64,000 nucleotides of DNA from a virus, in IMG/VR virus record IMGVR_UViG_3300032242_003075, positions 1 through 64,000 of that record. One strand, written 5' to 3'. The stretch's first letter is position 1; each line of letters opens with the position of its first letter. This document shows positions 26,297 through 57,085 of the stretch, piece after piece. The notes beneath the pieces are model-generated. The model was given only the letters and a program-made list of their open reading frames with translations. It made no database searches and was not told the origin of the DNA. A program made the translations under genes and the position numbers.

Positions 26297-27865
26297 GTGA
26301 AACAAACAAAATTTAAAGCTGAAGCTCGTCAGGAGTTAGCTAAGGGTATTAATGCACTGGCGGATGCAGTAAAAATAACTTTAGGCCCAAGAGGTCGAAA
26401 CGTTATCATTTCTAGGGACAATTCAGTTGCCATAACCAAGGACGGAGTTACTGTTGCTCGTGAGGTTCACCTTGAAAATTTCTTAGAGGACGTTGGTGCT
26501 CAGGTAATAAAACAGGTTGCAAATAAAGTTGCATTGGAAGCAGGGGACGGTACAACAACAGCAACCGTACTAGCTCATGCAATCTTCACTGAGGGTAACC
26601 GTTACGTTGAGACGGGCTCTCATCCGATGGACCTTAAAAAGGGAATCGAAATAGGCATGAAAGCTATCGTTAACCATCTTAAGGGTCAAAGCCAACAAAC
26701 TACAGATCTTAATAAGATTAAACAGGTCGCAACCATATCCGCAAATAACGATGAAGAAATAGGCACAATCATTGCTTCTGCCATGGAATCTGTAGGTTTT
26801 GATGGAATCATCACAGCCGGCGAAAGTAAAACAAGCGAGACCTTCGTTGAGGTGGTTAAGGGAATGCAAATTCAAAGCGGATACGTATCACCGTACTTCA
26901 TTACTGACACGGAAACTAATTCCGTTGAATTTACAAAACCGATCGTTATGTTGTACGATGGTAAGATCAAAAATCTTACGGACATTCTTCAGTTCTTAGA
27001 ATATTCAAATAAACAAAAGCAACCTCTATTAATAATAAGCGATGGTGTTGACGGAGAAGCGCTAAGCACTCTACTTGTTAATAAATTACAGGGAATTCTT
27101 AAAGTTGCCGCGGTTAGAGCTCCAGGCTTTGGAGAAAACCGTAGATCAAGGTTGCTTGACATTGCCACATTAACCGGTGCGACTCTAATTTCAGAAATGG
27201 ACGGAGTCACCATTAAGGAGGTAATCGCTGCAAACTATGTGGGATCATGTGATTCAATCTCAGTTACCAATGATTCAACCACAATAATTGGAGGTCATGG
27301 ATTTCCGGATGAAATCACGGATTTAATAAATGACATTAAGTCTCAAATTGAAGCGACCGATAATGAGTCCAGTAAGATTTTACTAAGGGAACGTCTTTCT
27401 AAATTTGAAGGTGGAGTCGCCATCATTAAAATAGGTGCAAATTCCGAAATTGAAGCTCGTGAAAAGGCCGATAGAATTGACGATGCTCTTGGAGCAACTA
27501 GAGCTGCCGTTGCTGAGGGAATCGTTGAGGGAGGCGGTATTGCCCTAATGAGAGCGGTTAGCGAAATTCAGGTAACTTCTCCAATTAGAGATATTCAGTT
27601 GGGAATTGACCTAATTAAAAAGGCTTGCACCCAACCGTTTAAAACCATTTTAGAAAATGCAGGTATCAATCCGGAGATCGTTTGGACTAAGATCCAAGAT
27701 GGTGCTCCAGGTTTTAACGCTAAGACCGAAGAGTACGTTAATATGATTGAGTCAGGTATAATTGACCCGGTTAAAGTTACCAGAACTGCATTGGAAAACG
27801 CAGTTTCAATCGCAAGTTTACTAATAACGACCGACTGTTTAATGGTTCAAAAACCAAAGGAATAA
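26297..27865 (+). CDS. groL: Chaperonin GroEL (phage-encoded)
   Basis: ADAVKITLGPRGRNV, ITKDGVTVA, AGDGTTTATV, VRAPGFG, EGIVEGGG, GIIDPVKVTRTALENA; lacks the GGM tail. Confidence 0.97.
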   Translation: MKQTKFKAEARQELAKGINALADAVKITLGPRGRNVIISRDNSVAITKDGVTVAREVHLENFLEDVGAQVIKQVANKVALEAGDGTTTATVLAHAIFTEGNRYVETGSHPMDLKKGIEIGMKAIVNHLKGQSQQTTDLNKIKQVATISANNDEEIGTIIASAMESVGFDGIITAGESKTSETFVEVVKGMQIQSGYVSPYFITDTETNSVEFTKPIVMLYDGKIKNLTDILQFLEYSNKQKQPLLIISDGVDGEALSTLLVNKLQGILKVAAVRAPGFGENRRSRLLDIATLTGATLISEMDGVTIKEVIAANYVGSCDSISVTNDSTTIIGGHGFPDEITDLINDIKSQIEATDNESSKILLRERLSKFEGGVAIIKIGANSEIEAREKADRIDDALGATRAAVAEGIVEGGGIALMRAVSEIQVTSPIRDIQLGIDLIKKACTQPFKTILENAGINPEIVWTKIQDGAPGFNAKTEEYVNMIESGIIDPVKVTRTALENAVSIASLLITTDCLMVQKPKE

Positions 27866-38345: not shown

Positions 38346-39455
38346 ATGAACTTAATCATCGATGGAAATGCATTTTTAAATGTAGCTGTAAGTATCGTCA
38401 AAAACATTCTTCTAAATGATAAACGAGTTGGTGAAAAGTACTACGTGTCCGACATTCTAGAAGATGATAAGTTCATGTTAAAACAGGCTAGCAAAGATGC
38501 GTTCAGAAGTTTTTCAATAAATTATTTTGGAAGCATTCTTGCGCCCTTTAAGGATAATATCAGCTCAGTCTTTTTCGTATTTGACTCTAAGAGTTGGAGA
38601 AAGAAATACATTAAAGAGCATTTTGAAGCACATGGTGAAGGAGACTTTAGTTACAAGGGACAGCGTAAGTACGATGATAAAATCTATCTCTTTTTCGAGT
38701 ACTTTCAAAATGAGATACTAAACGGCATAGCTGAAGAATACGGAGTAGTCGTTAACCGAGTGCCTGGAGCTGAGGGAGACGATCTAATTGCTTACATTTG
38801 TGAAAATCTAAATGAAGACATTTGCATTTGGTCAGTTGATAAGGATCTTACTCAATTGCTAGAAAGCGATAAACGTAAGATCATCTTAATCATGCCAAAG
38901 CAGATGACCAAGTACAAAAAGATCTATACAACTGAAGATTTTGATATGACAGAAACATCAAACGTTGATCTATTTAACTTTGATATTTCAATGATCGATA
39001 ATTCCGCTGTTACTACCATCGTACATGATTTAACCCAAAAGGATTATAAGCATTTCACAGTTGATCCAACCCTTGACGTTGTGACAAAATTCTTAGCCGG
39101 TGATGATTCGGATAATATCCCAAGAATTCATCCAAAGATGACAGCTTCTAAAGTTGCTAGAGTAATCGAGCAAGTTAAGAATTCCAACGATTGGAAATCA
39201 ATACTTTCTAGAATTGACTCAGGTGATTCTAAGTTCATTGATCAATTACGTGATATAACATGTGAAATTCTAAAAATAAAGGAACCTGGTGAATCTCAAA
39301 CGATCCAGAATAACCTTAACCGCAATCGAACGCTAGTTAGACTAAATACAAAGGTTTTTCCTTCAGAAATTAGGGAATCTTTAATCGCAAACGTTGATCT
39401 AACTGTTCGAAGAAAGTTTAACTACTCTAAATTTAAAAAAAATTACAAACACTAA
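38346..39455 (+). CDS. rnh: RNase H / 5'-3' flap exonuclease (T4 rnh-like)
   Basis: LIIDGN, VFDSKSWR, YKGQR, EGDDLI, SVDKDLTQL, GDDSDNIP. Confidence 0.88.
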   Translation: MNLIIDGNAFLNVAVSIVKNILLNDKRVGEKYYVSDILEDDKFMLKQASKDAFRSFSINYFGSILAPFKDNISSVFFVFDSKSWRKKYIKEHFEAHGEGDFSYKGQRKYDDKIYLFFEYFQNEILNGIAEEYGVVVNRVPGAEGDDLIAYICENLNEDICIWSVDKDLTQLLESDKRKIILIMPKQMTKYKKIYTTEDFDMTETSNVDLFNFDISMIDNSAVTTIVHDLTQKDYKHFTVDPTLDVVTKFLAGDDSDNIPRIHPKMTASKVARVIEQVKNSNDWKSILSRIDSGDSKFIDQLRDITCEILKIKEPGESQTIQNNLNRNRTLVRLNTKVFPSEIRESLIANVDLTVRRKFNYSKFKKNYKH

Positions 39456-39787
39456 TGAGCACCGAAATACAAACCGGCTTTTTGCCACTATTCGAAAGAG
39501 TCCTAGTTCTACCGGATTCAGTTGAGACTAAAACTGAGACAGGAATCATTTTGCCGCCTGAGGCTCGAAAGAGACCTAACACCGGGACCGTAATTTCACT
39601 AGGTCATTTGGTTGCAACTAATTCAGGTTGCCCAGTAAAGGAAGGCAATCGCGTCCTCTATCAAAGATACTCCGGACTGGACGTTAAATGGGACAATAAA
39701 GATTATCATTTAATAATGGCTAACGATCTATTAGCAATTATTGATAAGGATCAAGAAACAACACTTGAGCTAAAGGAAAATGTTTAA
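39455..39787 (+). CDS. groS: Co-chaperonin GroES
   Basis: PLFERVLV, ETKTETGIILP mobile loop, GTVISLG, VKEGNRVLYQRYSG, DLLAII. Confidence 0.92.
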   Translation: MSTEIQTGFLPLFERVLVLPDSVETKTETGIILPPEARKRPNTGTVISLGHLVATNSGCPVKEGNRVLYQRYSGLDVKWDNKDYHLIMANDLLAIIDKDQETTLELKENV

Positions 39788-40385
39788 AAAGTTCGATCAG
39801 TTTCTTCTTGAAAGAAGGGGCGGAGATTTTAGAATATTTTGCGATCTAGACGGAGTCTTGGTCGATTTCATAAGAGGTTTTAAGGAAATCCCAGCCAATT
39901 CTAAGAGTCAATCACCCGCTGATTACGAAAAGGCTCACGGTAAGGGCTCAATATGGCCAATGATAAATGCTCTTGGAGAAAGCTTTTGGGCTAACCTTGA
40001 CTGGACTGAGGATGGCCGTGAATTATGGGACTATTTGAAACAATACGATCCGATAATTCTATCGTCACCAAGTAGGCATCCTGGATGTTTAACTGGTAAA
40101 GCTAAGTGGGTTCACCGTAATCTAGGAATTGATCAGGACCCTGTGCTTAATCCAACCGATTTCACTAAGGATACTAGACTAATTCTATCTAATCATAAAC
40201 ACGATTACGTTGAACCTTGTAAAAACCTGTTGGGTAAACAACCTATCCTAATAGACGATTTTGATAAGAAATTGAAGATGTGGACAGATTCAGGTGGAAT
40301 CGGCGTCCTACATAACGATTCAACTGACACAATTAGGGTAGTTGAGGATATTATGAGAGAGTCCAAGAGACCTGATTTCAATTAA
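39780..40385 (+). CDS. HAD-family 5'(3')-deoxyribonucleotidase with capsid-targeting-like leader
   Basis: IFCDLDGVLVDF (HAD motif I), ILSS, GKAKW, ILIDD; N-terminus MFKKFDQFLLE. Confidence 0.85.
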   Translation: MFKKFDQFLLERRGGDFRIFCDLDGVLVDFIRGFKEIPANSKSQSPADYEKAHGKGSIWPMINALGESFWANLDWTEDGRELWDYLKQYDPIILSSPSRHPGCLTGKAKWVHRNLGIDQDPVLNPTDFTKDTRLILSNHKHDYVEPCKNLLGKQPILIDDFDKKLKMWTDSGGIGVLHNDSTDTIRVVEDIMRESKRPDFN

Positions 40386-43685: not shown

Positions 43686-44123
43686 ATGAAAATTTCAAGA
43701 ATCAGGGACGTTAAGATCCCAACTAGAGGAACTGAAAGATCAGCCGGCATAGATTTCTACGTGCCTAATGATTACCCAACCACAATAATCGCTCCAGGTA
43801 AATCAGTTTTAATTCCGACTGGCATCAAGGCCCAAATCCCTTCTGGGTACATGTTAACCGCCTTTAATAAGTCAGGCGTTGCTTTAAAACAGTGCCTAAT
43901 AAAGGGAGCGGAAGTATGTGATGAAGATTATCAGGGAGAAATTCACATACACGTCATTAACGTGGGTCAAGGTCACCAAACCATAACTCCTGGCCAAAAG
44001 TTAATTCAATTCATCCTAGTTCCGGTCTTTTACGATACTGTGGAGGAAGTTGACATCTCTGATCTATACCCTGAGGTTAGCGAGCGTGGAGAGGGCGGAT
44101 TCGGTTCAACTGGCACCAACTAA
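43686..44123 (+). CDS. dut: Trimeric dUTPase
   Basis: SAGIDF, KSG, DEDYQGEI, IQ, RGEGGFGSTG; promoter AAAC-N17-GTAAAAG at 43626-43653. Confidence 0.95.
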   Translation: MKISRIRDVKIPTRGTERSAGIDFYVPNDYPTTIIAPGKSVLIPTGIKAQIPSGYMLTAFNKSGVALKQCLIKGAEVCDEDYQGEIHIHVINVGQGHQTITPGQKLIQFILVPVFYDTVEEVDISDLYPEVSERGEGGFGSTGTN

Positions 44124-44147: not shown

Positions 44148-45530
44148 ATGATAGTAAGCACAGAATTTCATACTGAGGATTCCTCATTGCTTATTTCCTA
44201 TTATAATGCAGAAGGACTTTTAGAATTGATTAAGAAACCAATTCTACCTCATGATCTCTTTAACTGGACATTAACTCCAAATCCAAGCGAGTTTAGGAAC
44301 TGGGATGATAGGTTTCTTAAAAAGACCCAAGGCAAATGGTTAAGCCGATTCAGGCTTGAGGAACTGACTCAGACTAGACTTAGCGAGTCTGAATTAGCCG
44401 CAATCTACTCGGATTACAGCCCTAAGAAGTACTACCTGGATATTGAGATTCAATTAACATCAAATGAGTTTCCGGATCCGGCAAAAGCAGCAATGCCCGT
44501 TAATTTAATAACCTTTGTGAACGAGGAAAACATTTGCTTCATACTATCGACCATGAAGCATCTAGAAAAGCCAGCAATTGAACAGATGCAATCAGAGGTG
44601 AACGATTACTTTAAATCGCATAACCAGAATTTCACTCTTAAGTACCTATTTTTTGAACAGGAGGAAGAGCTATTAAAGATGTTCTTTCATAAGGCTCTAC
44701 CTAAAATTCCTTTATTAACAGGTTGGAACGTTATTGGGTTTGACTGGGTTTACCTAATTAATCGATGCAAGAATTTAGGTATCGACCCGATGGAAACCAT
44801 GCCTTCCAAAACTTTGATCGGTAAAAGTAAAATGCCAACTCACTTAGGCCTACTTGACTACATGGAAGTTTTCATGAACACTAAACCTTACAAAGTCGTT
44901 GAGAATTATAAGTTAGACTACATTGCTAACCTGGTTCTTGGAACCACCAAACTTCATAGCGAGTATGCTACAATGATCGAGGCTCAACAAGATATTGAAA
45001 ATTTCATCAAGTATAACATAATAGATACGGTTCTGGTTAAATTGATTGAGGATAAGCTTGGCTTGCTTGACGTTGCGTTTGCAATCTCTAAATTTGCAAA
45101 GGTTGACGTGTCCAAGGTGTTTAGCGCCGTGTACATCACCGAGACATTAATGTGTCGTGAATTCTTAGAAAGGGGTCGATACATGGCAAATGATCGTCGA
45201 GACGTTCAGGAGGAGGCTACCTATGTAGGAGCATACGTTGCAAAACCTGTGCCGGGTTACTACAAGTACGTATCTTGCTTTGACTTTGCTTCGATGTACC
45301 CAAACATCCAAATACAGTTTAACATTTCACCGGATGCATACTTAGGTAAAATTCAAGAAGGTCAGACCATTCAAGATGATCAAATCTTAACAAAGAACAA
45401 TACAGTATTTTCTAAAAAGACCGATTCGGCTGCTAGAACGATCTTAACTAGGCTGTATAACGGTCGTGTTGATACTAAGGCCGAGATGAAAAAATTAGAA
45501 GAACAACTGACTGGTGCTAAAGTTGCTTAA
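44148..45530 (+). CDS. gp43: Family B DNA polymerase, N-terminal subunit only (exonuclease + motif A)
   Basis: LDIE, GWNVIGFD, YKLD, YNIID, YVGAYV, FDFASMYP..FNISPD; ends in the first fingers helix with no KxxxNSxYG or YGDTDS. Confidence 0.88.
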   Translation: MIVSTEFHTEDSSLLISYYNAEGLLELIKKPILPHDLFNWTLTPNPSEFRNWDDRFLKKTQGKWLSRFRLEELTQTRLSESELAAIYSDYSPKKYYLDIEIQLTSNEFPDPAKAAMPVNLITFVNEENICFILSTMKHLEKPAIEQMQSEVNDYFKSHNQNFTLKYLFFEQEEELLKMFFHKALPKIPLLTGWNVIGFDWVYLINRCKNLGIDPMETMPSKTLIGKSKMPTHLGLLDYMEVFMNTKPYKVVENYKLDYIANLVLGTTKLHSEYATMIEAQQDIENFIKYNIIDTVLVKLIEDKLGLLDVAFAISKFAKVDVSKVFSAVYITETLMCREFLERGRYMANDRRDVQEEATYVGAYVAKPVPGYYKYVSCFDFASMYPNIQIQFNISPDAYLGKIQEGQTIQDDQILTKNNTVFSKKTDSAARTILTRLYNGRVDTKAEMKKLEEQLTGAKVA

Positions 45531-45549
45531 AAAAATAAAAAACTCAATT

Positions 45550-46194
45550 ATGAACAATTTCGATATGGAAACCTTGATCTCAATAAAATCAAGCTTTCAA
45601 TCAAACAAATTCCAATGGATAAAAACCAATGATCGTGCAAAGGTCGGCAAGATTGTTGAGGTTAGGGACGTTGTTCCCAGCCGAAACGGTAGATTCACAG
45701 CAATTCTATCTGACGGAACCCAGGTCGATACTGATCGAGTTTCTTCGGACTTAATGATGATCACCGATGACCAACCCCCAATGTCAATGGCCGAGATACA
45801 ATCGATCAATTACATTCCTTCCCTATCTGAGGAGGTTTCAGTTTCTCCTGATATACCTGATGAATTTGCTAAGGAAGTTAAATCAAACATCACAACTGCC
45901 AAACCTGCTAACCTTGAACCTCCAGCTCAACCTAAATTAATCTCGCAAGCCGATACTACTGATCTATTTGGAATGTTTGAACTGGAAGATTCAGAGATAA
46001 ACGTTCCTATTAAAGTTAAGCTGCCAAGCAAGGCCCTGCTACAGATGATGTACGTAAGCTTCAAGAACAAGGAGGACTTTTTGACAAAGTTATCAAACTA
46101 TATAAATAACAACATAACGGTCGATGCGATCAAGGAGACCATGAAAAAATCTCTAGATTCTGACCCAAAAAAGAATGTGCTAGATAATGAATAA
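45550..46194 (+). CDS. Hypothetical protein
   Basis: The ORF track starts at GTG 45514; the in-frame ATG at 45550, after an A-rich leader and clear of the polymerase stop, is the likelier start. Confidence 0.65.
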   Translation: MNNFDMETLISIKSSFQSNKFQWIKTNDRAKVGKIVEVRDVVPSRNGRFTAILSDGTQVDTDRVSSDLMMITDDQPPMSMAEIQSINYIPSLSEEVSVSPDIPDEFAKEVKSNITTAKPANLEPPAQPKLISQADTTDLFGMFELEDSEINVPIKVKLPSKALLQMMYVSFKNKEDFLTKLSNYINNNITVDAIKETMKKSLDSDPKKNVLDNE

Positions 46195-46750
46195 CCAATT
46201 CACATCGGACGAACACAGTCAATTCGGAAAATTTAACGTATTGACAAAGACTCGAGATTCTCATTCTTCCCAGTACCTATCCGCTCAGTCAAAGTACATC
46301 GCGATAATTCCATTCGAAAGAAACTCTGAGAATAACATCAAATCCATTTATTTGCTTGATTTTCCGAATTACTCAACCGGTCGATCAGCTCAATCGCTAA
46401 TAATAGATGAAATCGACCAGACTAAGGATAAGACTGTCTTTGATTCTGTGTGTCGAGCTTTGGTTGAGGAGGCAGGCCTCGATATTGATGCTTTATCAAT
46501 AAACGAGAATAACATTTTTTATCTTGGTGAAATTACCACAACCTGGCCGGTGTCATCAACTCTTCAATGTTATGGAATTGATCTCACCGGTAAAGCTTCC
46601 CTAGAATTCACCAGAAACTTATCTAAGGATCCTTTCATCAAAGATGAATCTTCTATAATCCAAGCAAACTTTCATCAAGTAGTTAACGGAGATTACTCAG
46701 ATTCAACGGTTTTAGCTGGATCATTTCTCCTAGTTTCATATTTTAACTAA
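46187..46750 (+). CDS. NUDIX-fold hydrolase-like protein
   Basis: Degenerate Nudix box DSVCRALVEEAGL followed by FYLG. Confidence 0.6.
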   Translation: MNNQFTSDEHSQFGKFNVLTKTRDSHSSQYLSAQSKYIAIIPFERNSENNIKSIYLLDFPNYSTGRSAQSLIIDEIDQTKDKTVFDSVCRALVEEAGLDIDALSINENNIFYLGEITTTWPVSSTLQCYGIDLTGKASLEFTRNLSKDPFIKDESSIIQANFHQVVNGDYSDSTVLAGSFLLVSYFN

Positions 46751-46801: not shown

Positions 46802-47692
46802 ATGGCAAAAACACCAATGGACGCATTCGCCAAGTTTAACGACTTGCTCGAAAAGAAAGTCAAGTCCAAAATAGACATCAAGGGATTTTCAGACATTGAT
46901 GAATACATCCCAACCGGTAATTACCTCTTAAATGCTCAAATGTCAGGCTCTTTGTTCGGAGGTTATCCGAACACTCGAAGCATTGGTATCGCCGGTGACT
47001 CAGGTTCAGGTAAAACGTTCTTGTGCTTGAATGCCGTACGTGAACTTCAAAAGCTAGGATACGTAGTTTTCTATATCGATACTGAGGGAGCTATTGACCG
47101 ATCTGACTATCTTAAATTTGGAGTCGATCTTGACAAGCTCACTTACCTTCGTATGGGTTACATTAGCGAGGTTAAATTTTTCATTAACGATTTCATTGAA
47201 ACTATGAAAGAAAATCCAGGTTTAAAAGTTGCAATATTTGTTGACTCGGTGGGGATGTTAGACACAGACAAGAGTAAAAGGGACATGGAGGCCGGTAAAA
47301 ACGCCGCTGACATGGGTCTTCGCTCAAAGGAGATGAGATCTCTTTTTAAATCGTTCACCCTTGAGCTTTCAAATTTACGAGTGCCATTTATTTTTACGAA
47401 TCACACTTACGCTTGCCTTTTAGGAGACCATAAAATTCTAACACATCAAGGTGAACTTATGATTTCTGAACTTAAAGTAGGACAATTAGTAGAAACTTTA
47501 GAAGGTTTAAAACCTATTGAAAACATATTTCAATACGATTGTCCAAAATTGATTGAAATAGTATTAGAGGATGACACAGTTATCAAGTGTACGCCTAATC
47601 ATAAGTTTTTAATCGGCGATGATTGGTCAAATGAAGATCATTGGGTAGAAGCAATGGATTTAATTGATGGAGCTGAAATAGTTTATAAATAA
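46802..47692 (+). CDS. uvsX: RecA/UvsX recombinase N-terminal part (204 aa) fused to split intein N-fragment (92 aa, from Cys codon 47414)
   Basis: Walker A GDSGSGKT, YIDTEGA, FVDSVG, DMGLR, TNHTYA, then CLLGDHKI...CTPNHKF...WVEAMDL; promoter AAAC-N16-GTACAAG at 46750-46776. Confidence 0.93.
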   Translation: MAKTPMDAFAKFNDLLEKKVKSKIDIKGFSDIDEYIPTGNYLLNAQMSGSLFGGYPNTRSIGIAGDSGSGKTFLCLNAVRELQKLGYVVFYIDTEGAIDRSDYLKFGVDLDKLTYLRMGYISEVKFFINDFIETMKENPGLKVAIFVDSVGMLDTDKSKRDMEAGKNAADMGLRSKEMRSLFKSFTLELSNLRVPFIFTNHTYACLLGDHKILTHQGELMISELKVGQLVETLEGLKPIENIFQYDCPKLIEIVLEDDTVIKCTPNHKFLIGDDWSNEDHWVEAMDLIDGAEIVYK

Positions 47693-47746
47693 AAAATTCT
47701 TGCATGTCTGTGATATATAAAAATAAAGGGACATGCAAGATTTTTT
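47691..47746 (+). promoter_or_regulatory. Hairpin covering the endonuclease start codon, with a late-promoter-like loop
   Basis: tcttgcatgtc (47698-47708) is the exact reverse complement of gacatgcaaga (47730-47740; ATG at 47733), extended by A6/T6; loop contains GATATATAA. Confidence 0.75.
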
Positions 47747-48785
47747 ACAACGAATTATAACATCATCAAATCTAGGATTAGCGTCTCTATCTAAGTCGAT
47801 TCGAAAAGATCGAGAATTTTATGATTTCTTAATTTCACAAACTTCATTTCTTTCAGAAAATGCAAACGTTCCATTTAGACTATATCATATTAGGCAAGGA
47901 TTAACTGAACAAGTTAGATGTAAACACTGCAAAAATCGATTGTTTAAAATTAGAATTGAATTCTGTAATAGGAAATGTGCAGCTATGTTTAATAGCAGAT
48001 TAATTGAAGTTCAGAAAAAGAGATCAAATTCATTAATCGAATCTTTCAGTAAAAAGACAGATTCTGAAAAACTTGAAACTCGTAAAAAACGTGAATCTAC
48101 TAATTTAGCGAAAGGCGGGCATGTTTCGAATCTTCATTCAGTTGAAGGAAAACAAAAAGTCAAAGAAACTTTCATTTCTAAATATGGATATGAAAACCCA
48201 AATACAAATTCATCAATTAAGGCAAAAATTTCAGCTGCAAATAAATTAACCTCAAATCATGCTTTAGTTGTACGTAAGAGCACCTGTTTAGAAAGATATG
48301 GTGTTGATAATGTTATGAAAACTCAAGAGGTTAAAGATAAAATAAAAGAGACTTGCTTTTCTAAATACGGCTCACAAAGCCACATGCAAAATGACAAGTT
48401 CTTAGAAAAATTTTTTAATGAATATCACAAAAGGTACAAATCTAAAGACTATGTATTACCTAGCGGAAAAACAGTTAAATTACTAGGATATGAACCTCAC
48501 GTATTGGACTATTTATTGACTAAATTTAATGAGTCTGACATAATTATCGGGTATTCAGCATACCGAAAAATAAAATGTAACTACATTCAAACTGGAAAAA
48601 CCCATCGATATATACCAGATTTCTATATTGAGTCAAAAAATTTAGTAATCGAAGTTAAATCAAACTATACGTACAATTTCGCTGATCCAAATAAGAGAAA
48701 GTCAGTACAAGAAAAAGGAATCAACTTTGTTTATGCAGTAGTTGATATAAAGAAAAAGAAAATATCATTTAATCGTTATGAATAA
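47733..48785 (+). mobile_element. Free-standing putative homing endonuclease (PD-(D/E)XK) between the split-intein halves
   Basis: CKHC...FCNRKC zinc motif, four T-x-x-x-K/R-Y-G-type repeats, C-terminal YIPDFYIESKNLVIEVKS; visibly more AT-rich than the flanks. Confidence 0.82.
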
Positions 48786-49476
48786 AATTAAAATTAAATC
48801 AGTAAAAGTCATTGAAAATTCTGAAAAAGTGTATGACATACAAGTAAAAGATGTGCATCACTACATCCTATCAAACAGGGTAGTTTCGCATAACTCAATG
48901 GATCAGTACACACCAAAGGGCATGTCCGGTGGTGGAGGTCCTGAATTCTCCGCATCAATCATTTTAATGTTGAGCAAGGGAACTCTTCGAGATGAAAGTA
49001 AGACGACTACTGGTATAATTGTAAGATCAAAAACGAAAAAGAACAGATTAGCCAAACCCATTGATATTGAGTTTCACATATCGTTTCATAAGGGTATGAA
49101 TCCTTACGTCGGGCTGGAACAATTTGTTAATTGGGAAAATTGCGGAATAGTTAGGGGTTCAAAATTAACCGAAAAGGAATTCAATAAGCTTAAACCTGAG
49201 GATCAGGCCAAATGTCATACGTTTGAAGTGAATGGGGAAACTTTCTACGTTAAACCGAGCATTCAAGCTAAGAACTTCATCGTTAGAGGAACCGGTGCGG
49301 AAGTCCCAGTAAGAGAATTTTTCTCAGCCAAGCTATTCACCGATGCAGTGCTAAAAGAATTGGACGAAAAGATAATTCAGCCAACCTTCAAATTCCCGGA
49401 AGGTCAAGAGGGCATAAATGTCATGGAAACTGATGAACTTGAGAACTTAACTGATACCTCAGACAATGATCTTTAA
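48778..49476 (+). CDS. uvsX: Split intein C-fragment (39 aa, ends HN at 48894) fused to RecA/UvsX C-terminal part (193 aa)
   Basis: KIKSVK...VYDIQVKDVHHYILSNRVVSHN|SMDQYTPKGMSGGGGPEFSASIILML, KKNR, GMNPYVGL. Confidence 0.93.
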   Translation: MNKIKIKSVKVIENSEKVYDIQVKDVHHYILSNRVVSHNSMDQYTPKGMSGGGGPEFSASIILMLSKGTLRDESKTTTGIIVRSKTKKNRLAKPIDIEFHISFHKGMNPYVGLEQFVNWENCGIVRGSKLTEKEFNKLKPEDQAKCHTFEVNGETFYVKPSIQAKNFIVRGTGAEVPVREFFSAKLFTDAVLKELDEKIIQPTFKFPEGQEGINVMETDELENLTDTSDNDL

Positions 49477-52004: not shown

Positions 52005-53119
52005 TGCAACTTAATAACATTAGAAAAATAACGTTGATAGGCGATCTCCATCTAGGAATCAAGAATAACTCAATGGAATGGCTTCAGATACAAAAAAGCT
52101 TTTTACTTGATTTTTTGATTAGTAAGGTTGATGAAGATTTCAATCAAGCTCAGGATATTCTTTTGTTTGAGGGAGACATCTTTCATTCTCGTGAATCAAT
52201 TAACGTTAGAGTTCACGATGAGGCTCTAACCATCTTTAAAACTCTTGCTGAAAAATTCAAGCGTGGAATCTACATCATAATTGGAAACCATGACGTGTAT
52301 TACAAAGATCGAAACGTGGTTCACTCATTAAAGGCAATATCTCACCTGTCCGATAACATTCACGTGTTTGAAAATCCTAAAACTTTAAGCATAAACGGAT
52401 CTCATAATTTTTTAATGTTACCTTGGGTTGAAGATACGTCAAAGATCTCCGGCATAATATCCGATAATAAGGATTTTTGTGATTACGTAATTTGTCACAC
52501 CGACGTTAAGGGAGTTAAGTACAATCGTTGGACCAAAGTCGATCATGGAGTTGAAGTTTCCGACCTAGAATCGTATAAGCGAGTTTATTCCGGTCACATT
52601 CATCATCGTCAAGAGTTTAAAAATGTTCTCTACACTGGGACTCCTTACCAAATGGACAGGGGAGATCGCGGAAATACTAAGGGTTTCTATCAGTTGGACG
52701 TTTCTAGTTCAAAGATAATTGAAACCTTCATTGAGAACACTCAATCGCCAGTTTACAAGAAATTCGATGTGTATGATCTACTAGAGAAACCTATGTCTGA
52801 TATAATCGATGAATTCAATAATTCATTCGTTGACATTATGATAAGCGTTAGCTTAGTTAATAAATTCTCGGTGAATAGATTCTTGGAATTGATTTCTAAG
52901 TCGACTCACAGAAAGATTGAATTTTTTACCTATGCTAATGATGATTCAAAGTCAGATTCAACGAGTGTTGAATTTAATCCTGAGGACCAATTTAACGTAA
53001 TTGACATTTTTAAAAGTTACATTAAATCCAAGGAATACTCTCAGACGTTTAAACAATCTCTCGCTAAAAAATTCGTTGAGATTCATAATACTGTAAAATT
53101 ACAAGACCTAAATGATTAA
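52004..53119 (+). CDS. gp47: Mre11/SbcD-like recombination nuclease
   Basis: GDLHLG, GDIFH, GNHD, SGHIH, YTGTPYQ metallophosphoesterase motifs. Confidence 0.92.
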   Translation: MQLNNIRKITLIGDLHLGIKNNSMEWLQIQKSFLLDFLISKVDEDFNQAQDILLFEGDIFHSRESINVRVHDEALTIFKTLAEKFKRGIYIIIGNHDVYYKDRNVVHSLKAISHLSDNIHVFENPKTLSINGSHNFLMLPWVEDTSKISGIISDNKDFCDYVICHTDVKGVKYNRWTKVDHGVEVSDLESYKRVYSGHIHHRQEFKNVLYTGTPYQMDRGDRGNTKGFYQLDVSSSKIIETFIENTQSPVYKKFDVYDLLEKPMSDIIDEFNNSFVDIMISVSLVNKFSVNRFLELISKSTHRKIEFFTYANDDSKSDSTSVEFNPEDQFNVIDIFKSYIKSKEYSQTFKQSLAKKFVEIHNTVKLQDLND

Positions 53120-53609
53120 TCCTGCAATACTACAAACACTAATCGTTAATAAAACACCGGACGGTGAGTTCGGAGTCTTTACCAATGCGCAAATACACAA
53201 ACATACGACGGTTGAAATTTGTGCCTGGCTACCTATCACCAAAAAAGTCCAAATCTTACTTAAATCAAACGGCTCAAGTTTAGCCAACGCTATATTTGAA
53301 AATCCTGACGGAATGGACAGGGAAAGAGCTTTCATTGAAAAGCTGGCTGACATGGAATTACAGAAGAGATTGGACGCAGGGCTGATTAGCCAAAGTCAAT
53401 TTACCGATCTTATACTCAGTTCATTTGACCCAACTAAATTACTTCACGTAGAGTCTCATGCTCTACTTTTAGGGTTCGGTTCAATTTATCGAAGATCACA
53501 AGTATCCCCTAACCTTAATTGGGAATATGATAGTTCCTCTAAACTATACAAATTCTTTGCAGTACAAGATATTCAAGCGGGTCAAGAACTCACGTATTTT
53601 ACCAACTAA
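53112..53609 (+). CDS. SET-domain protein (degenerate NHS motif)
   Basis: GEFGVFTNAQI...VEIC, LGFGSIYRRSQVSPNL, FFAVQDIQAGQELT. Confidence 0.75.
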   Translation: MINPAILQTLIVNKTPDGEFGVFTNAQIHKHTTVEICAWLPITKKVQILLKSNGSSLANAIFENPDGMDRERAFIEKLADMELQKRLDAGLISQSQFTDLILSSFDPTKLLHVESHALLLGFGSIYRRSQVSPNLNWEYDSSSKLYKFFAVQDIQAGQELTYFTN

Positions 53610-55320: not shown

Positions 55321-56211
55321 ATGATCACCTTCAAAGCTAATTCATTTGCTGAATGTTATTCTGACTCACTTAAGTCACTTTTAGAAAATGGCTTAGTTAA
55401 TAACGCTAGGGGTACCACAAGTAAAGAATTACTGGACGTTGCCCTAGTCATTGAGGATCCGACTAAATGCCTATATTCTAATCAGGTCAGAGGTTCACAA
55501 TTAAAGTACATAGCTGCTGAATTTCTTTGGTATTATTCTGGCCGAAATGACGTAGAGTTCATTTCAAAATGGGCAAAGTTCTGGGAAACGATTCAGAATC
55601 CTGACGGTACAGCTAATTCGGCTTACGGTAACTTAATATTCACCGAGACTAACGAGCATGGGTTTTCTCAGTATCAATGGGCAATACAGAGTCTAATCAA
55701 TGACGCTAATACTCGTCAAGCAATACTTCATTTTAATAAACCTAAACACCAGAATTCTTCTAATAAGGATTTCGTTTGTACTATGTACGCGAACCTACAC
55801 ATTAGACGAAATAAGCTCTACATGAGCGTTTTCATGAGAAGCAATGATGTTATTTTGGGAACTCCGACCGACGTAGCATTTTTTTGTTCCTTACAAATGC
55901 AAATTCATTCTCATCTTAAAGAATTTTATCCGGATCTGGAACTAGGTTCGTATACACACGTTGCTAATTCCTATCATGTGTACGACCGACATTACGATCT
56001 AGTTAACAGAATGTTAGACTCTGAATTTAACCCTGAAAGTCTTCCACCGATAATTTCAGATCTAATTGAAATTGATGGAACTCAATCCAATGACTTCAAA
56101 TCAGTTTTTGATTCAATTAACTCGCCGAGCGACGACATCTTGATATTTCAGGACAGTTTTGATCTTTTAAAATGGATCTTTCTAAATCTATCCAACATTA
56201 ACCCCGAATAA
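55321..56211 (+). CDS. Thymidylate-synthase-fold enzyme, dCMP (hydroxy)methylase-like
   Basis: EFLWY, NSAYG, TRQA, DFVCT (catalytic Cys), MRSNDVILGTPTD with Asp at the specificity site, SYHVY; promoter TAAC-N17-GTAAAAG at 55272-55299. Confidence 0.8.
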   Translation: MITFKANSFAECYSDSLKSLLENGLVNNARGTTSKELLDVALVIEDPTKCLYSNQVRGSQLKYIAAEFLWYYSGRNDVEFISKWAKFWETIQNPDGTANSAYGNLIFTETNEHGFSQYQWAIQSLINDANTRQAILHFNKPKHQNSSNKDFVCTMYANLHIRRNKLYMSVFMRSNDVILGTPTDVAFFCSLQMQIHSHLKEFYPDLELGSYTHVANSYHVYDRHYDLVNRMLDSEFNPESLPPIISDLIEIDGTQSNDFKSVFDSINSPSDDILIFQDSFDLLKWIFLNLSNINPE

Positions 56212-56217
56212 CTAATC

Positions 56218-56676
56218 ATGATGATTGATAAACAACATAAATTCGACATAGCTTACATTAAGATGGCTCAAGTTTGGTCAGAGTTGTCTTATGCAACTCG
56301 CAAAAAGGTCGGAGCTCTAATCGTCAAAAACAACACAATCATTGCCGACGGATTCAATGGAACTCCTACCGGTTTTGAAAATGAATGTGAAATTGCAATA
56401 AACCACGAGGACGGGTCCTTTATTGAATACCAAACTAAGTGGTACGTTCTACATGCTGAATCTAATGCCCTAGCTAAAGTTGCTAAATCGACCCAAAGCT
56501 CAGATGGTGCAACACTATACATCACATACTCTCCATGTCGAGAGTGCAGTAAATTGATCCTACAAGCCGGAATCAAACGAGTCGTCTATCTAGAAGAGTA
56601 TCGAGATATTTCAGGTCTTGACTTTTTAAGAAGGGCTGGTGTCGATGTAAAAAAAATAGACAGTCAATCAATATGA
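56218..56676 (+). CDS. dCMP deaminase
   Basis: VGALIV, GFNGTP, HAESNA, SPCRECSK. Confidence 0.93.
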   Translation: MMIDKQHKFDIAYIKMAQVWSELSYATRKKVGALIVKNNTIIADGFNGTPTGFENECEIAINHEDGSFIEYQTKWYVLHAESNALAKVAKSTQSSDGATLYITYSPCRECSKLILQAGIKRVVYLEEYRDISGLDFLRRAGVDVKKIDSQSI

Positions 56677-57074
56677 TAGATTCAACAGATCGCCGACTTG
56701 AAATAGTCTTTGTTAGAGATCAGCGACAATTTATTCAAGTTTTTAACAAAAAACAAAAATGCGATTATTTACTTAACGTGAATAAAATAATTAGGGAAAA
56801 ATTTGAGCAAGAGATCATTGTCCCCAATAAGATTCAGTCCTTTTTAATTAATTATGAAATTAAAAAACTAATTGACAAAGCGGTAAACGTTAGGAATCGA
56901 AAGTACAATCGAATAATTTACGTAAATTCAGGATTAAGCGTTAGTAGCATAAACAATGCAATAAAATTCTTAACTCTTGCGTATGATGAGATAACGTTTG
57001 TCCCGAAGCTAATTGATACCGACTCTGATTTTAATGAACTTGCCGGAGTTGAAATCATAAAAAAAGGGCTTTAG
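56673..57074 (+). CDS. Hypothetical protein
   Basis: 133-aa ORF overlapping the deaminase stop (ATGA). Confidence 0.7.
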   Translation: MIDSTDRRLEIVFVRDQRQFIQVFNKKQKCDYLLNVNKIIREKFEQEIIVPNKIQSFLINYEIKKLIDKAVNVRNRKYNRIIYVNSGLSVSSINNAIKFLTLAYDEITFVPKLIDTDSDFNELAGVEIIKKGL

Positions 57075-57085
57075 AGCCCTTTTTT
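57061..57085. terminator. Bidirectional terminator
   Basis: aaaaa-gggct-ttag-agccc-tttttt between convergent operons. Confidence 0.85.

Follow-up and report, generated by a model that had tools for sequence, protein, structure and literature searches.

The window analysed here, the first 64,000 bases of the 89,882-base IMG/VR virus record IMGVR_UViG_3300032242_003075 (33% complete according to CheckV), carries on its plus strand an open reading frame (ORF) of the thymidylate synthase (TS) fold and, directly downstream, the gene of a zinc-dependent deoxycytidine monophosphate (dCMP) deaminase (Table 1). The TS-fold ORF ends with the stop codon TAA, which is followed by 6 bases (CTAATC) and then by the ATG of the deaminase; the ATG of a third gene, ORF133, which is translationally coupled to the deaminase, overlaps the deaminase stop codon (ATGA). 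The original prediction, made from the letters of the DNA, had pointed to the first 2 genes, quoted motifs of the TS homologue, placed an Asp at the position of Asn177 of Escherichia coli ThyA and Asp179 of phage T4 gp42, and proposed an enzyme that acts on dCMP. The quoted motifs and the 6-nt spacing are present, and our alignments with ThyA and gp42 put the Asp of a GTPTD motif at that position. The locus probably encodes a T4 gp42-type hydroxymethylase together with a dCMP deaminase, in a pathway in which hydroxymethylated deoxycytidine (hm-dC) would be built into the phage DNA and the deoxyuridine monophosphate (dUMP) made by the deaminase would go to a separate canonical ThyA.

Fold and active-site residues of the thymidylate synthase homologue

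The ORF matched the Pfam family Thymidylat_synt (PF00303) with an E-value of 5e-24 and 85.3 bits (cut-off 24.3), and its PHROG match had an E-value of 5.1e-43. Among solved structures, the closest sequence was that of MilA, the cytidine monophosphate (CMP) 5-hydroxymethylase of mildiomycin biosynthesis (PDB 5jnh and 5b6d; E 1.6e-20), followed by T4 dCMP hydroxymethylase (E 9.2e-16), the best ThyA (E 3.2e-13), and E. coli ThyA (E about 1e-9). An AlphaFold2 (AF2) model built from 60 sequences had a predicted local distance difference test (pLDDT) score of 96.5 and matched TS-family folds with E-values from 1e-17 to 1e-20. The best fold match of the model was again MilA (TMq 0.76–0.77), with the C-terminal extension included; the ThyA structures and T4 dCMP hydroxymethylase gave TMq values of 0.62–0.68, the T4 enzyme (0.63) falling among the ThyA structures.

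We compared the active-site residues with those of E. coli ThyA, the ThyA proteins of related phages (described below), Xp12 TS, T4 gp42, and RB69 gp48 (public records); the last 3 enzymes make 5-methyl-dCMP, 5-hydroxymethyl-dCMP, and 5-hydroxy-dCMP, respectively. The residues of interest lie mainly in the motifs NSAYG (Ser100 and Tyr102), DFVCT (Asp150, Cys153, and Thr154), and MRSNDVILGTPTDVAFF (Arg173, Ser174, Asp176, and Asp184). The comparison revealed that (i) Cys153 aligned with E. coli Cys146 and T4 Cys148; (ii) the residue 3 positions before this cysteine (Cys-3), which is Leu in ThyA, Asn in Xp12 TS, Asp in T4 gp42, and Glu in RB69 gp48, is Asp150; (iii) the position of E. coli Asp169 is occupied by Asp176, Asn being found there only in RB69 among the references compared; (iv) the position of E. 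coli Asn177 and T4 Asp179 is occupied by Asp184, Asn being found there only in ThyA among the references; and (v) the deoxyribose determinants are Ser174 (TS Ser167) and Arg132 (TS Arg126'), where MilA has Ala and Lys. At the 3 positions of (ii), (iii), and (iv), the query and T4 gp42 both read Asp/Asp/Asp, Xp12 TS reads Asn/Asp/Asp, RB69 gp48 Glu/Asn/Asp, and ThyA Leu/Asp/Asn.

These positions have published functional correlates. An Asp or Glu at Cys-3 (T4 Asp145) activates the substrate water, the T4 mutation D145N abolishes 5-hydroxymethyl-dCMP formation, and Asp at Cys-3 together with a Ser-x-Tyr pair has been proposed as a signature of hydroxymethylation (PMC6400193). Ser-x-Tyr alone does not discriminate, since Xp12 TS has S-A-Y too. 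The changes N177D, L143D/E, and D169N have been described as markers of substrate and product, D169N being diagnostic of 5-hydroxy-dCMP synthases (PMC13326640), and sugar determinants of the ribose and deoxyribose types have been distinguished (PMC5175136). At every one of these published sequence marks, the TS-fold ORF reads as a dCMP hydroxymethylase (EC 2.1.2.8). Two other identities were rejected, that of a 5-hydroxy-dCMP synthase by Asp176 and that of a CMP-specific MilA-like enzyme by Ser174 and Arg132. The ORF also failed the test for a canonical ThyA (EC 2.1.1.45): it has Asp184, Asp150, and Thr154 where ThyA has Asn177, Leu143, and His147, and its NCBIfam scores stayed below all of the ThyA equivalog cut-offs (at best 67.5 bits versus 327).

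T4 gp42 (PDB 1b5d, 1b5e, and 6a9a; partners Cd, Td, gp56, and gp1) has the same fold and shares with the ORF the catalytic Cys, the Asp at Cys-3, the Ser-x-Tyr pair, a Glu, the RSND motif, and the Asp at the cytosine-reading position; the motifs nearly coincide (DFVCT here and DFMCT in T4, MRSND in both). By contrast, the identity between the 2 proteins is 29% over 218 residues, gp42 is without the C-terminal extension of about 60 residues that is present here and in MilA, and the second phosphate-binding Arg is Gln133 here. MilA likewise has Asp at Cys-3 and at the Asn177 position, but it carries the ribose-preferring Ala176 and Lys133, and it belongs to an antibiotic gene cluster, whereas the gene here lies in a phage replication module. 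The assignment of dCMP as the predicted substrate is supported by Asp184, by the ranking of MilA and T4 dCMP hydroxymethylase ahead of any ThyA, and by MilA as the best fold.

Table 1. Coordinates of the operon, of the active-site motifs, and of other features in the window
Feature	Position	Strand	Remarks
TS-fold ORF, predicted T4 gp42-type dCMP hydroxymethylase	55321..56211	+	296 aa; core of about 235 aa and C-terminal extension of about 60 aa
S100-A-Y102, Ser-x-Tyr water-holding pair (T4 S94/Y96)	55618..55626	+	
D150-F-V-C153, catalytic Cys and Asp at Cys-3 (E. coli L143/T4 D145 position)	55768..55779	+	
R173-S174-N-D176 ... D184	55837..55872	+	deoxyribose, D169-position, and cytosine determinants
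Zinc-dependent dCMP deaminase	56218..56676	+	152 aa; PF00383
ORF133, third gene of the operon	56673..57074	+	133 codons; ATG overlaps deaminase stop (ATGA)
Hairpin of 11 pairs with A and T runs on its flanks	57060..57085		between the operon and convergent minus-strand genes
Canonical trimeric dUTPase	43686..44123	+	directly 5' of the family B polymerase piece; PF00692 E 8.4e-23; TIGR00576 108.5 bits (cut-off 102.55)
5'(3')-deoxyribonucleotidase-like HAD protein, deoxynucleoside monophosphate (dNMP) pool context	39780..40385	+	phrog_2643 E 2.9e-20; no Pfam match at E 0.1

Conservation of the locus and the ThyA of related phages

A set of 5.8 billion proteins yielded 494 homologues of the TS-fold ORF at E ≤1e-10 among 1080 candidates, on contigs of up to 294,724 bases, and in IMG/VR a relative was encoded in 278 of 281 candidate stretches. 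Several of the related IMG/VR records are 252–271 kb long and 93–100% complete, and one has terminal repeats. The database name UFOVP on one homologue presumably indicates a freshwater origin. Among the sequencing runs, one DNA data set, which may be the source sample, was listed as containing the sequence, and no RNA data set was listed. Nothing on this clade was among the papers listed by a literature search on dCMP hydroxymethylases with deaminases in jumbo or freshwater phages, and we do not call the clade undescribed beyond the reach of our literature searches.

Of the 268 homologues, 258 read Asp/Asp/Asp, made up of 118 of the 119 close homologues and 140 of the 149 cluster representatives. 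Among the exceptions, 3 rows have Asn at the last position, 2 have Ile or Val at Cys-3, 2 are partial, and 3, which were counted as misses, have no residue at the Cys column. Taken singly, Asp is found at Cys-3 in 263, at the Asp169 position in 264, and at the Asn177 position in 262 of the 268 homologues. Asp150 and the pair Ser100/Tyr102 are invariant in a 60-sequence alignment made of the query and 59 chosen homologues (alignment A3).

A quick maximum-likelihood tree was computed from 86 rows, which comprised 75 of 126 representatives (225–345 aa; the first 75 by rank), 5 of the 119 close homologues, and 6 reference and query sequences. A branch with an SH-aLRT support of 99 divides the tree, with Xp12 TS, E. 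coli ThyA, and the ThyA of the relatives to one side and a set of 83 rows to the other, which includes the query, T4 gp42, RB69 gp48, and all 80 metagenomic rows. The tree places the query outside the lineage of the methylase and ThyA, and no more than that is to be read from it.

The order of the 2 genes is conserved: the deaminase follows the TS homologue in 78 of 78 related loci with at least 520 bases downstream; in the remaining 2 of the 80 loci, the sequence stops before that. ORF133 is present in 78 of the 80 loci. The deaminase matched Pfam dCMP_cyt_deam_1 (PF00383; E 3.4e-22) and phrog_174 (E 6.4e-49), and it carries the motifs HAE (residues 79–81; 56452–56460) and PCREC (residues 106–110; 56533–56547). 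Among solved structures it is closest to 4p9c, a deoxycytidylate deaminase of 138 aa (E 4.1e-38), and T4 Cd (1vq2) matched with an E-value of 1.9e-22. It is 51.8% identical to the deaminase of cyanophage S-TIM5, which is of similar length and has the same HAE and PCxxC motifs, and 28% identical to that of Xp12. We take 4p9c (and 4p9d and 4p9e) to be the S-TIM5 enzyme. Unlike the deaminase here, that of S-TIM5 is not beside a TS-family gene. The simplest reading, by analogy with the T4 scheme, is that the deaminase of the window would take dCMP.

The original prediction had reported no canonical thyA or thyX in the window. This absence extends to the whole 89,882-base record, in which the TS-fold ORF is the sole PF00303 match and PF02511 (ThyX) has no match; as the record is 33% complete, the absence says little. 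These and the other family searches were run on six-frame translations, which can miss divergent genes. The related phages were more informative. Of the 8 relatives with a completeness of 83% or more, 7 encode canonical ThyA, 45–122 kb away from the Asp-type gene, and the relatives on which this comparison is based are 61–80% identical to the query in the TS homologue. Five relatives of 93–100% completeness have 2 TS-family genes each, one of the Asp type and one canonical ThyA (in G001, the 2 are 122 kb apart), and ThyX was not found in the 5 relatives searched (93–100% complete). Canonical ThyA is also found in G006 (100% complete) and G019 (84%), and G017 (83%) has none. G019 belongs, like the window, to a sublineage with a trimeric dUTPase (described below), so canonical ThyA is not confined to the sublineage with a gp56-type gene.

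The ThyA proteins of the relatives contain the motifs LPPCH, QRSVD, and GLPFN, that is, the residues Leu143, His147, Asp169, and Asn177, and they pass NCBIfam equivalog cut-offs (TIGR03284, 327.8 bits versus 108; another, 331.1 bits versus 325). They are 380–401 aa long, compared with 264 in E. coli (L082:866-2032, L083:730-1872, and L084:685-1890), and the alignment has 3 insertions in them, after about residue 90, after the catalytic Cys region, and before the C-terminus.

The dCTPase/dUTPase slot, candidate kinases, and ORF133

The original prediction had proposed to look for a dCTPase, and a homologue of the T4 gp56 dCTPase/dUTPase was found in part of the clade. Among 20 related records, 9 have a gp56-like ORF of 155–159 aa directly 5' of the polymerase piece, and these include every one of the 6 records with a completeness of 93% or more. 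The ORF is 39% identical to T4 gp56 over 94 residues, and no solved structure matched it at E 0.01. A further 9 of the 20 records, that of the window among them, have a trimeric dUTPase in the same slot (43686–44123 in the window, compared with L095:1486-1965 and L094:1513-1980). Both genes together were found in none of the records, and 2 records matched neither. PDB dUTPases matched the protein of the window with E-values down to 2.5e-23, and gp56-type and dUTPase-type records share 81% identity in the polymerase piece that flanks the slot. The alternation of the gp56-like gene and the dUTPase looks like a non-orthologous swap within one phage clade.

Thymidylate kinase had no match over the cut-off in 5 near-complete relatives, one sub-threshold match (E 0.004) occurring in G005, and a search with phrog_139 gave only short matches with internal stop codons. 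Outside the window, at 82446–83054 of the record, a 202-aa protein with an N-terminal P-loop resembles viral thymidylate-kinase, AAA_28, and dNK-like clusters of the ESM Atlas (scores 0.95–0.98; TM 0.65–0.83); it had a faint match to the PHROG thymidylate kinase (E 0.0053) and no solved relative below E 0.37. The gene is part of a minus-strand cluster (80578–83581 of the record; L100:16578-19581) that encodes a 620-aa protein with a cytidylyltransferase-like domain, the 202-aa P-loop protein, and a 176-aa protein with faint matches to nucleotidases and polynucleotide kinases. This cluster could provide the nucleotide kinase that is missing, or it could be a NadR-like set for NAD salvage.

The original prediction had found no glucosyltransferase in the window, which agrees with our searches: GT1, GT2, and T4 beta-glucosyltransferase had no match in the 89,882-base record, the controls for beta-glucosyltransferase being silent as well.

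ORF133 has 293 homologues, which are unnamed or called hypothetical save for 2 stray automatic names, and it had no Pfam, PHROG, or NCBIfam match. An AF2 model from 25 sequences reached a pLDDT of 85.4. The Foldseek matches of this model were weak, and all top matches were P-loop kinase folds (best E-value in the PDB 3.7e-3; best non-orthologue in BFVD 7.6e-4; TM about 0.5), among them adenosine phosphosulfate (APS) kinase, gluconate kinase, the kinase domain of PFK-2, T4 polynucleotide kinase, and dNMP kinases. A Walker A motif is absent where it would be expected, and many Lys, Arg, Asn, and Tyr residues are invariant. An hhalign comparison of ORF133 with T4 gp1 gave a probability of 0.9%, and the ESM Atlas gave a chance-level score (0.84) with glycosyltransferase-like leads, which the fold did not support. 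ORF133 is also unrelated to the small ORF that follows the deaminase of S-TIM5. We describe ORF133 as a conserved, clade-specific operon partner with a kinase-like predicted fold and do not call it a kinase.

The operon closes a plus-strand block of replication and nucleotide-metabolism genes. The block includes genes for GroEL, the large subunit of class I ribonucleotide reductase, a gp32-like single-strand-binding protein, and GroES; the HAD 5'(3')-deoxyribonucleotidase, the trimeric dUTPase, a 460-aa piece of a family B polymerase (PolB), and RecA/UvsX; and a DnaB-type helicase, an Mre11-like nuclease, a SET-domain ORF, and a Rad50-like ATPase. Structural genes lie 3' of the operon on the opposite strand. 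The hairpin between the 2 gene sets is a plausible and likely two-way terminator, the number of terminator-like sites (1 found versus a shuffle mean of 1.3) not being significant as a count alone.

Several of the neighbours have features of their own. A HAD hydrolase also adjoins the TS homologue in Xp12 (compare the HAD gene in Table 1). Within the PolB region (44148–46750), the family B match is limited to the 460-aa ORF, where it spans the exonuclease domain and positions 1–143 of the polymerase profile. No family was matched by the next 2 ORFs (226 and 187 aa), so the polymerase may be in separate parts or highly divergent. RecA/UvsX is encoded in 2 pieces (46802–49476) that have intein-splicing-domain matches at their broken ends, with a gene for a DUF7487/TnsA-like endonuclease between them. 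The SET-domain ORF (53112–53609; Pfam E 3e-7) sits between the Mre11-like and Rad50-like genes and had a tblastn match in 49 of 80 related loci, some of which stop short of its position. The phage has a chaperone set of its own, GroEL (26297–27865), GroES (39455–39787), and a DnaJ-domain protein (66213–67112, record coordinates).

Proposed pathway and its alternatives

In the pathway that we consider probable, Cys153 would attack C6 of dCMP, Asp184 would read and protonate the cytosine ring, and methylene-tetrahydrofolate would supply the one-carbon unit. Asp150, with Ser100 and Tyr102, would hold a water molecule for addition to the exocyclic methylene, so that the product would be 5-hydroxymethyl-dCMP and the folate would be released as tetrahydrofolate, not dihydrofolate. 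Dihydrofolate reductase (DHFR) was not found in 4 complete or near-complete relatives, which fits, if weakly, a reaction without folate oxidation. The deaminase would turn the same substrate, dCMP, into dUMP, which would feed a separate canonical ThyA lying outside the fragment. At this dCMP branch point, the three-gene operon would set the ratio of hm-dC to deoxythymidine (dT) precursors, like gp42, Cd, and Td in T4, and the placing of hydroxymethylase and deaminase in one operon would fix their ratio. The 5-hydroxymethyl-dCMP would then be phosphorylated and built into DNA, where it would replace some or all cytosine and could be decorated further. The clade resembles T4 in its dCMP deaminase, in the separate canonical ThyA of the relatives, and in the gp56 homologue that about half of them have. 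It differs from T4 in that the hydroxymethylase and the deaminase are in one operon with a third gene, in that a gp1-type kinase and a T4-type glucosyltransferase were not found, and in that the slot of the gp56 homologue holds a trimeric dUTPase in the record of the window. In T4, the genes for the hydroxymethylase and the deaminase are scattered.

The pairing of such genes has been described before. According to Yang et al. (bioRxiv 10.1101/2024.12.05.627091), contigs with modified cytosine are marked by a deaminase located no more than 3 kb from a TS gene (104 of 149 versus 17 of 277), and most such TS homologues carry dCMP-type residues. The same pair within 3 kb is found in the metaviromes of that study and of MetaGPA (eLife 2021, PMC8670742), and Yang et al., who had 284 candidates, predicted products from residues, the same approach as ours. 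As in the neighbourhoods of their deaminases selective for 5-methyl- and 5-hydroxymethylcytosine (mSCD), the deaminase here lies in cis with a TS homologue of the Asp177 type. The contigs of Yang et al. often carry PRA-PH and PolA, whereas the clade described here has PolB and no PolA, and PRA-PH was not found in its complete and near-complete members. The TS-deaminase neighbourhood as a mark of cytosine modification is therefore already published; the less expected features of this clade are the alternation of the gp56-like gene and the dUTPase, the missing gp1-type kinase, and ORF133.

Several observations weigh against the proposed pathway. (i) The rule for Cys-3 is a correlation, with one mutant (T4 D145N) behind it. 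(ii) The 83-row clade is unresolved inside, and T4 gp42 and RB69 gp48 sit in it on long branches. (iii) The gp56-type dCTPase (phrog_173) had no match in the record of the window, which is 33% complete and has a dUTPase in the slot, so that the exclusion of dCTP is unaccounted for in the available third of the genome. (iv) The T4 gp1-type dNMP kinase (PF21448) had no match in 6 records, and the 202-aa kinase-like candidate adjoins a cytidylyltransferase-like gene and so may serve in NAD salvage. (v) PRA-PH, MazG, and carbamoyltransferase were not found in the complete and near-complete relatives; T4 beta-glucosyltransferase (PF09198) had no match either, a result made uninformative by control genomes that were equally silent; and 4 of 5 relatives have GT1 and GT2 domains, though at differing, non-conserved places. 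(vi) Many deaminases in cis with TS homologues favour 5-methyl- or 5-hydroxymethylcytosine, and in a later screen of the same study 34 of 56 active enzymes preferred 5-methylcytosine over cytosine; as these preferences are polyphyletic according to the results cited (Yang et al., 10.1101/2024.12.05.627091), the substrate of the deaminase is not readable from its sequence.

A variant of the pathway, possible but doubtful, would make the operon a self-contained branch-point module for 5-hydroxymethylcytosine, built from components other than those of T4, with ORF133 as a new third component, perhaps a derived 5-hydroxymethyl-dCMP kinase or a regulator. Phages of the dUTPase type would then exclude dCTP by deamination, of dCTP as well as dCMP, with the products passing through dUTPase to ThyA, or would replace cytosine only in part.

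It is rather unlikely that hydroxymethylation is followed by deamination of the product, a route in which 5-hydroxymethyl-dCMP (or 5-hydroxymethyl-dCTP) would be converted to the 5-hydroxymethyl-dU nucleotide and the DNA would contain 5-hydroxymethyluracil or a derivative, instead of or beside 5-hydroxymethylcytosine. The 6-nt spacing of the 2 genes and their adjacency in all 78 loci would suit such a route, as would the preferences under (vi), and, in a strain producing 5-hydroxymethyl-dC, 7 of the 90 in-cis deaminases gave rise to 5-hydroxymethyl-dU in the DNA (Yang et al., 10.1101/2024.12.05.627091). In that study, however, all 7 of these deaminases (mSCD-B5 and 6 others) were paired with TS homologues whose predicted product is 5-methyl-dCMP, a prediction confirmed for 5 of the 7. 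The deaminase here is nearer to those of S-TIM5 and 4p9c, the latter deposited as a deoxycytidylate deaminase, than to that of Xp12, and the relatives keep canonical ThyA, so that ordinary thymidine would compete with hydroxymethyluracil.

That the product stays out of DNA appears improbable. The pair would in this case reshape nucleotide pools, for example by draining dCMP at host takeover, or the 5-hydroxymethylpyrimidine would serve another use, as in the antibiotic made with MilA. The lack of a recognised 5-hydroxymethyl-dCMP kinase, the lack of a dCTPase in the record of the window, and MilA as the best structural match, C-terminal extension included, speak for it. Against it, Ser174 and Arg132 are of the dCMP type and not the Ala and Lys of MilA (by the rule of PMC5175136), the gene lies in a replication module near the genes for Mre11/Rad50, helicase, polymerase, and ribonucleotide reductase, and the characterised phage enzymes of this kind in the literature cited all feed DNA.

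The original prediction had left the product open between 5-methylcytosine, 5-hydroxymethylcytosine, thymidine monophosphate (dTMP), and hydroxymethyl-dUMP, and had raised a bypass of ThyA in which methylation precedes deamination. Asp150, the Ser-x-Tyr pair, and Asp176 point to the hydroxymethyl type; the bypass depends on a methyl product. In such a scheme an Xp12-type dCMP methyltransferase (EC 2.1.1.54) would provide 5-methyl-dC for the DNA, and part of the pool would be deaminated to the dT nucleotide, a route that has been proposed for Xp12-type phages and is experimentally supported there (Yang et al., 10.1101/2024.12.05.627091). We regard this as very improbable for the enzyme described here, even though it shares with Xp12 TS the Asp at the Asn177 position, the deaminase follows the TS homologue as in Xp12 (where DHFR comes next), and neither ThyA nor ThyX is encoded in the 89.9-kb record. 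At Cys-3, Xp12 TS has Asn, with Pro after the Cys, in place of the Asp and Thr here; the 2 enzymes are 26% identical and lie on separate deep branches divided by the support of 99; no DHFR was found in the relatives searched; and the missing ThyA is uninformative in a record of 33% completeness, given ThyA in 7 of 8 near-complete relatives. The bypass was rejected on the Asp at Cys-3, the tree, and the canonical ThyA of the relatives; with that ThyA and a predicted hydroxymethyl product, it would be neither needed nor chemically available, and we consider it unlikely.

Least probable is a flavin-dependent 5-hydroxy-dCMP synthase of the kind of RB69 gp48 and DLP3 gp80, with 5-hydroxycytosine as the base for glycosylation: the group of RB69 gp48 shares the acidic Cys-3 residue and the Asp at the Asn177 position, RB69 gp48 falls within the query's 61-row tree subset, and G005 and G017 have GT1/GT2 genes 10–13 kb from the TS gene, but D169N is absent (Asp176 here, and Asp in 264 of 268 homologues), RB69 gp48 has a branch length of 4.15 that makes its placement unreliable, and PDB 9iqu and 9iqc ("Thymidylate synthase", 234–238 aa), which we guess to be the flavin enzyme, match at E 6e-8 only. 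The rule on D169N is that of PMC13326640, cited above.

No new route to thymidine is opened by these results; the idea is already in the literature for Xp12-type systems, and the enzyme described here does not agree with it. If the proposed pathway is correct, widespread uncultured jumbo phages of about 250–270 kb would build their DNA with 5-hydroxymethylcytosine or a derivative of it. Hydroxymethylcytosine in phage DNA is a known anti-restriction strategy, and its presence would affect how such DNA can be sequenced and cut, which host defences are effective against these phages, and how their abundance in metagenomes is to be read. The gp56-like gene and the dUTPase, which occupy the same slot in close relatives, would then amount to a natural experiment on the need for a dCTPase in cytosine replacement.

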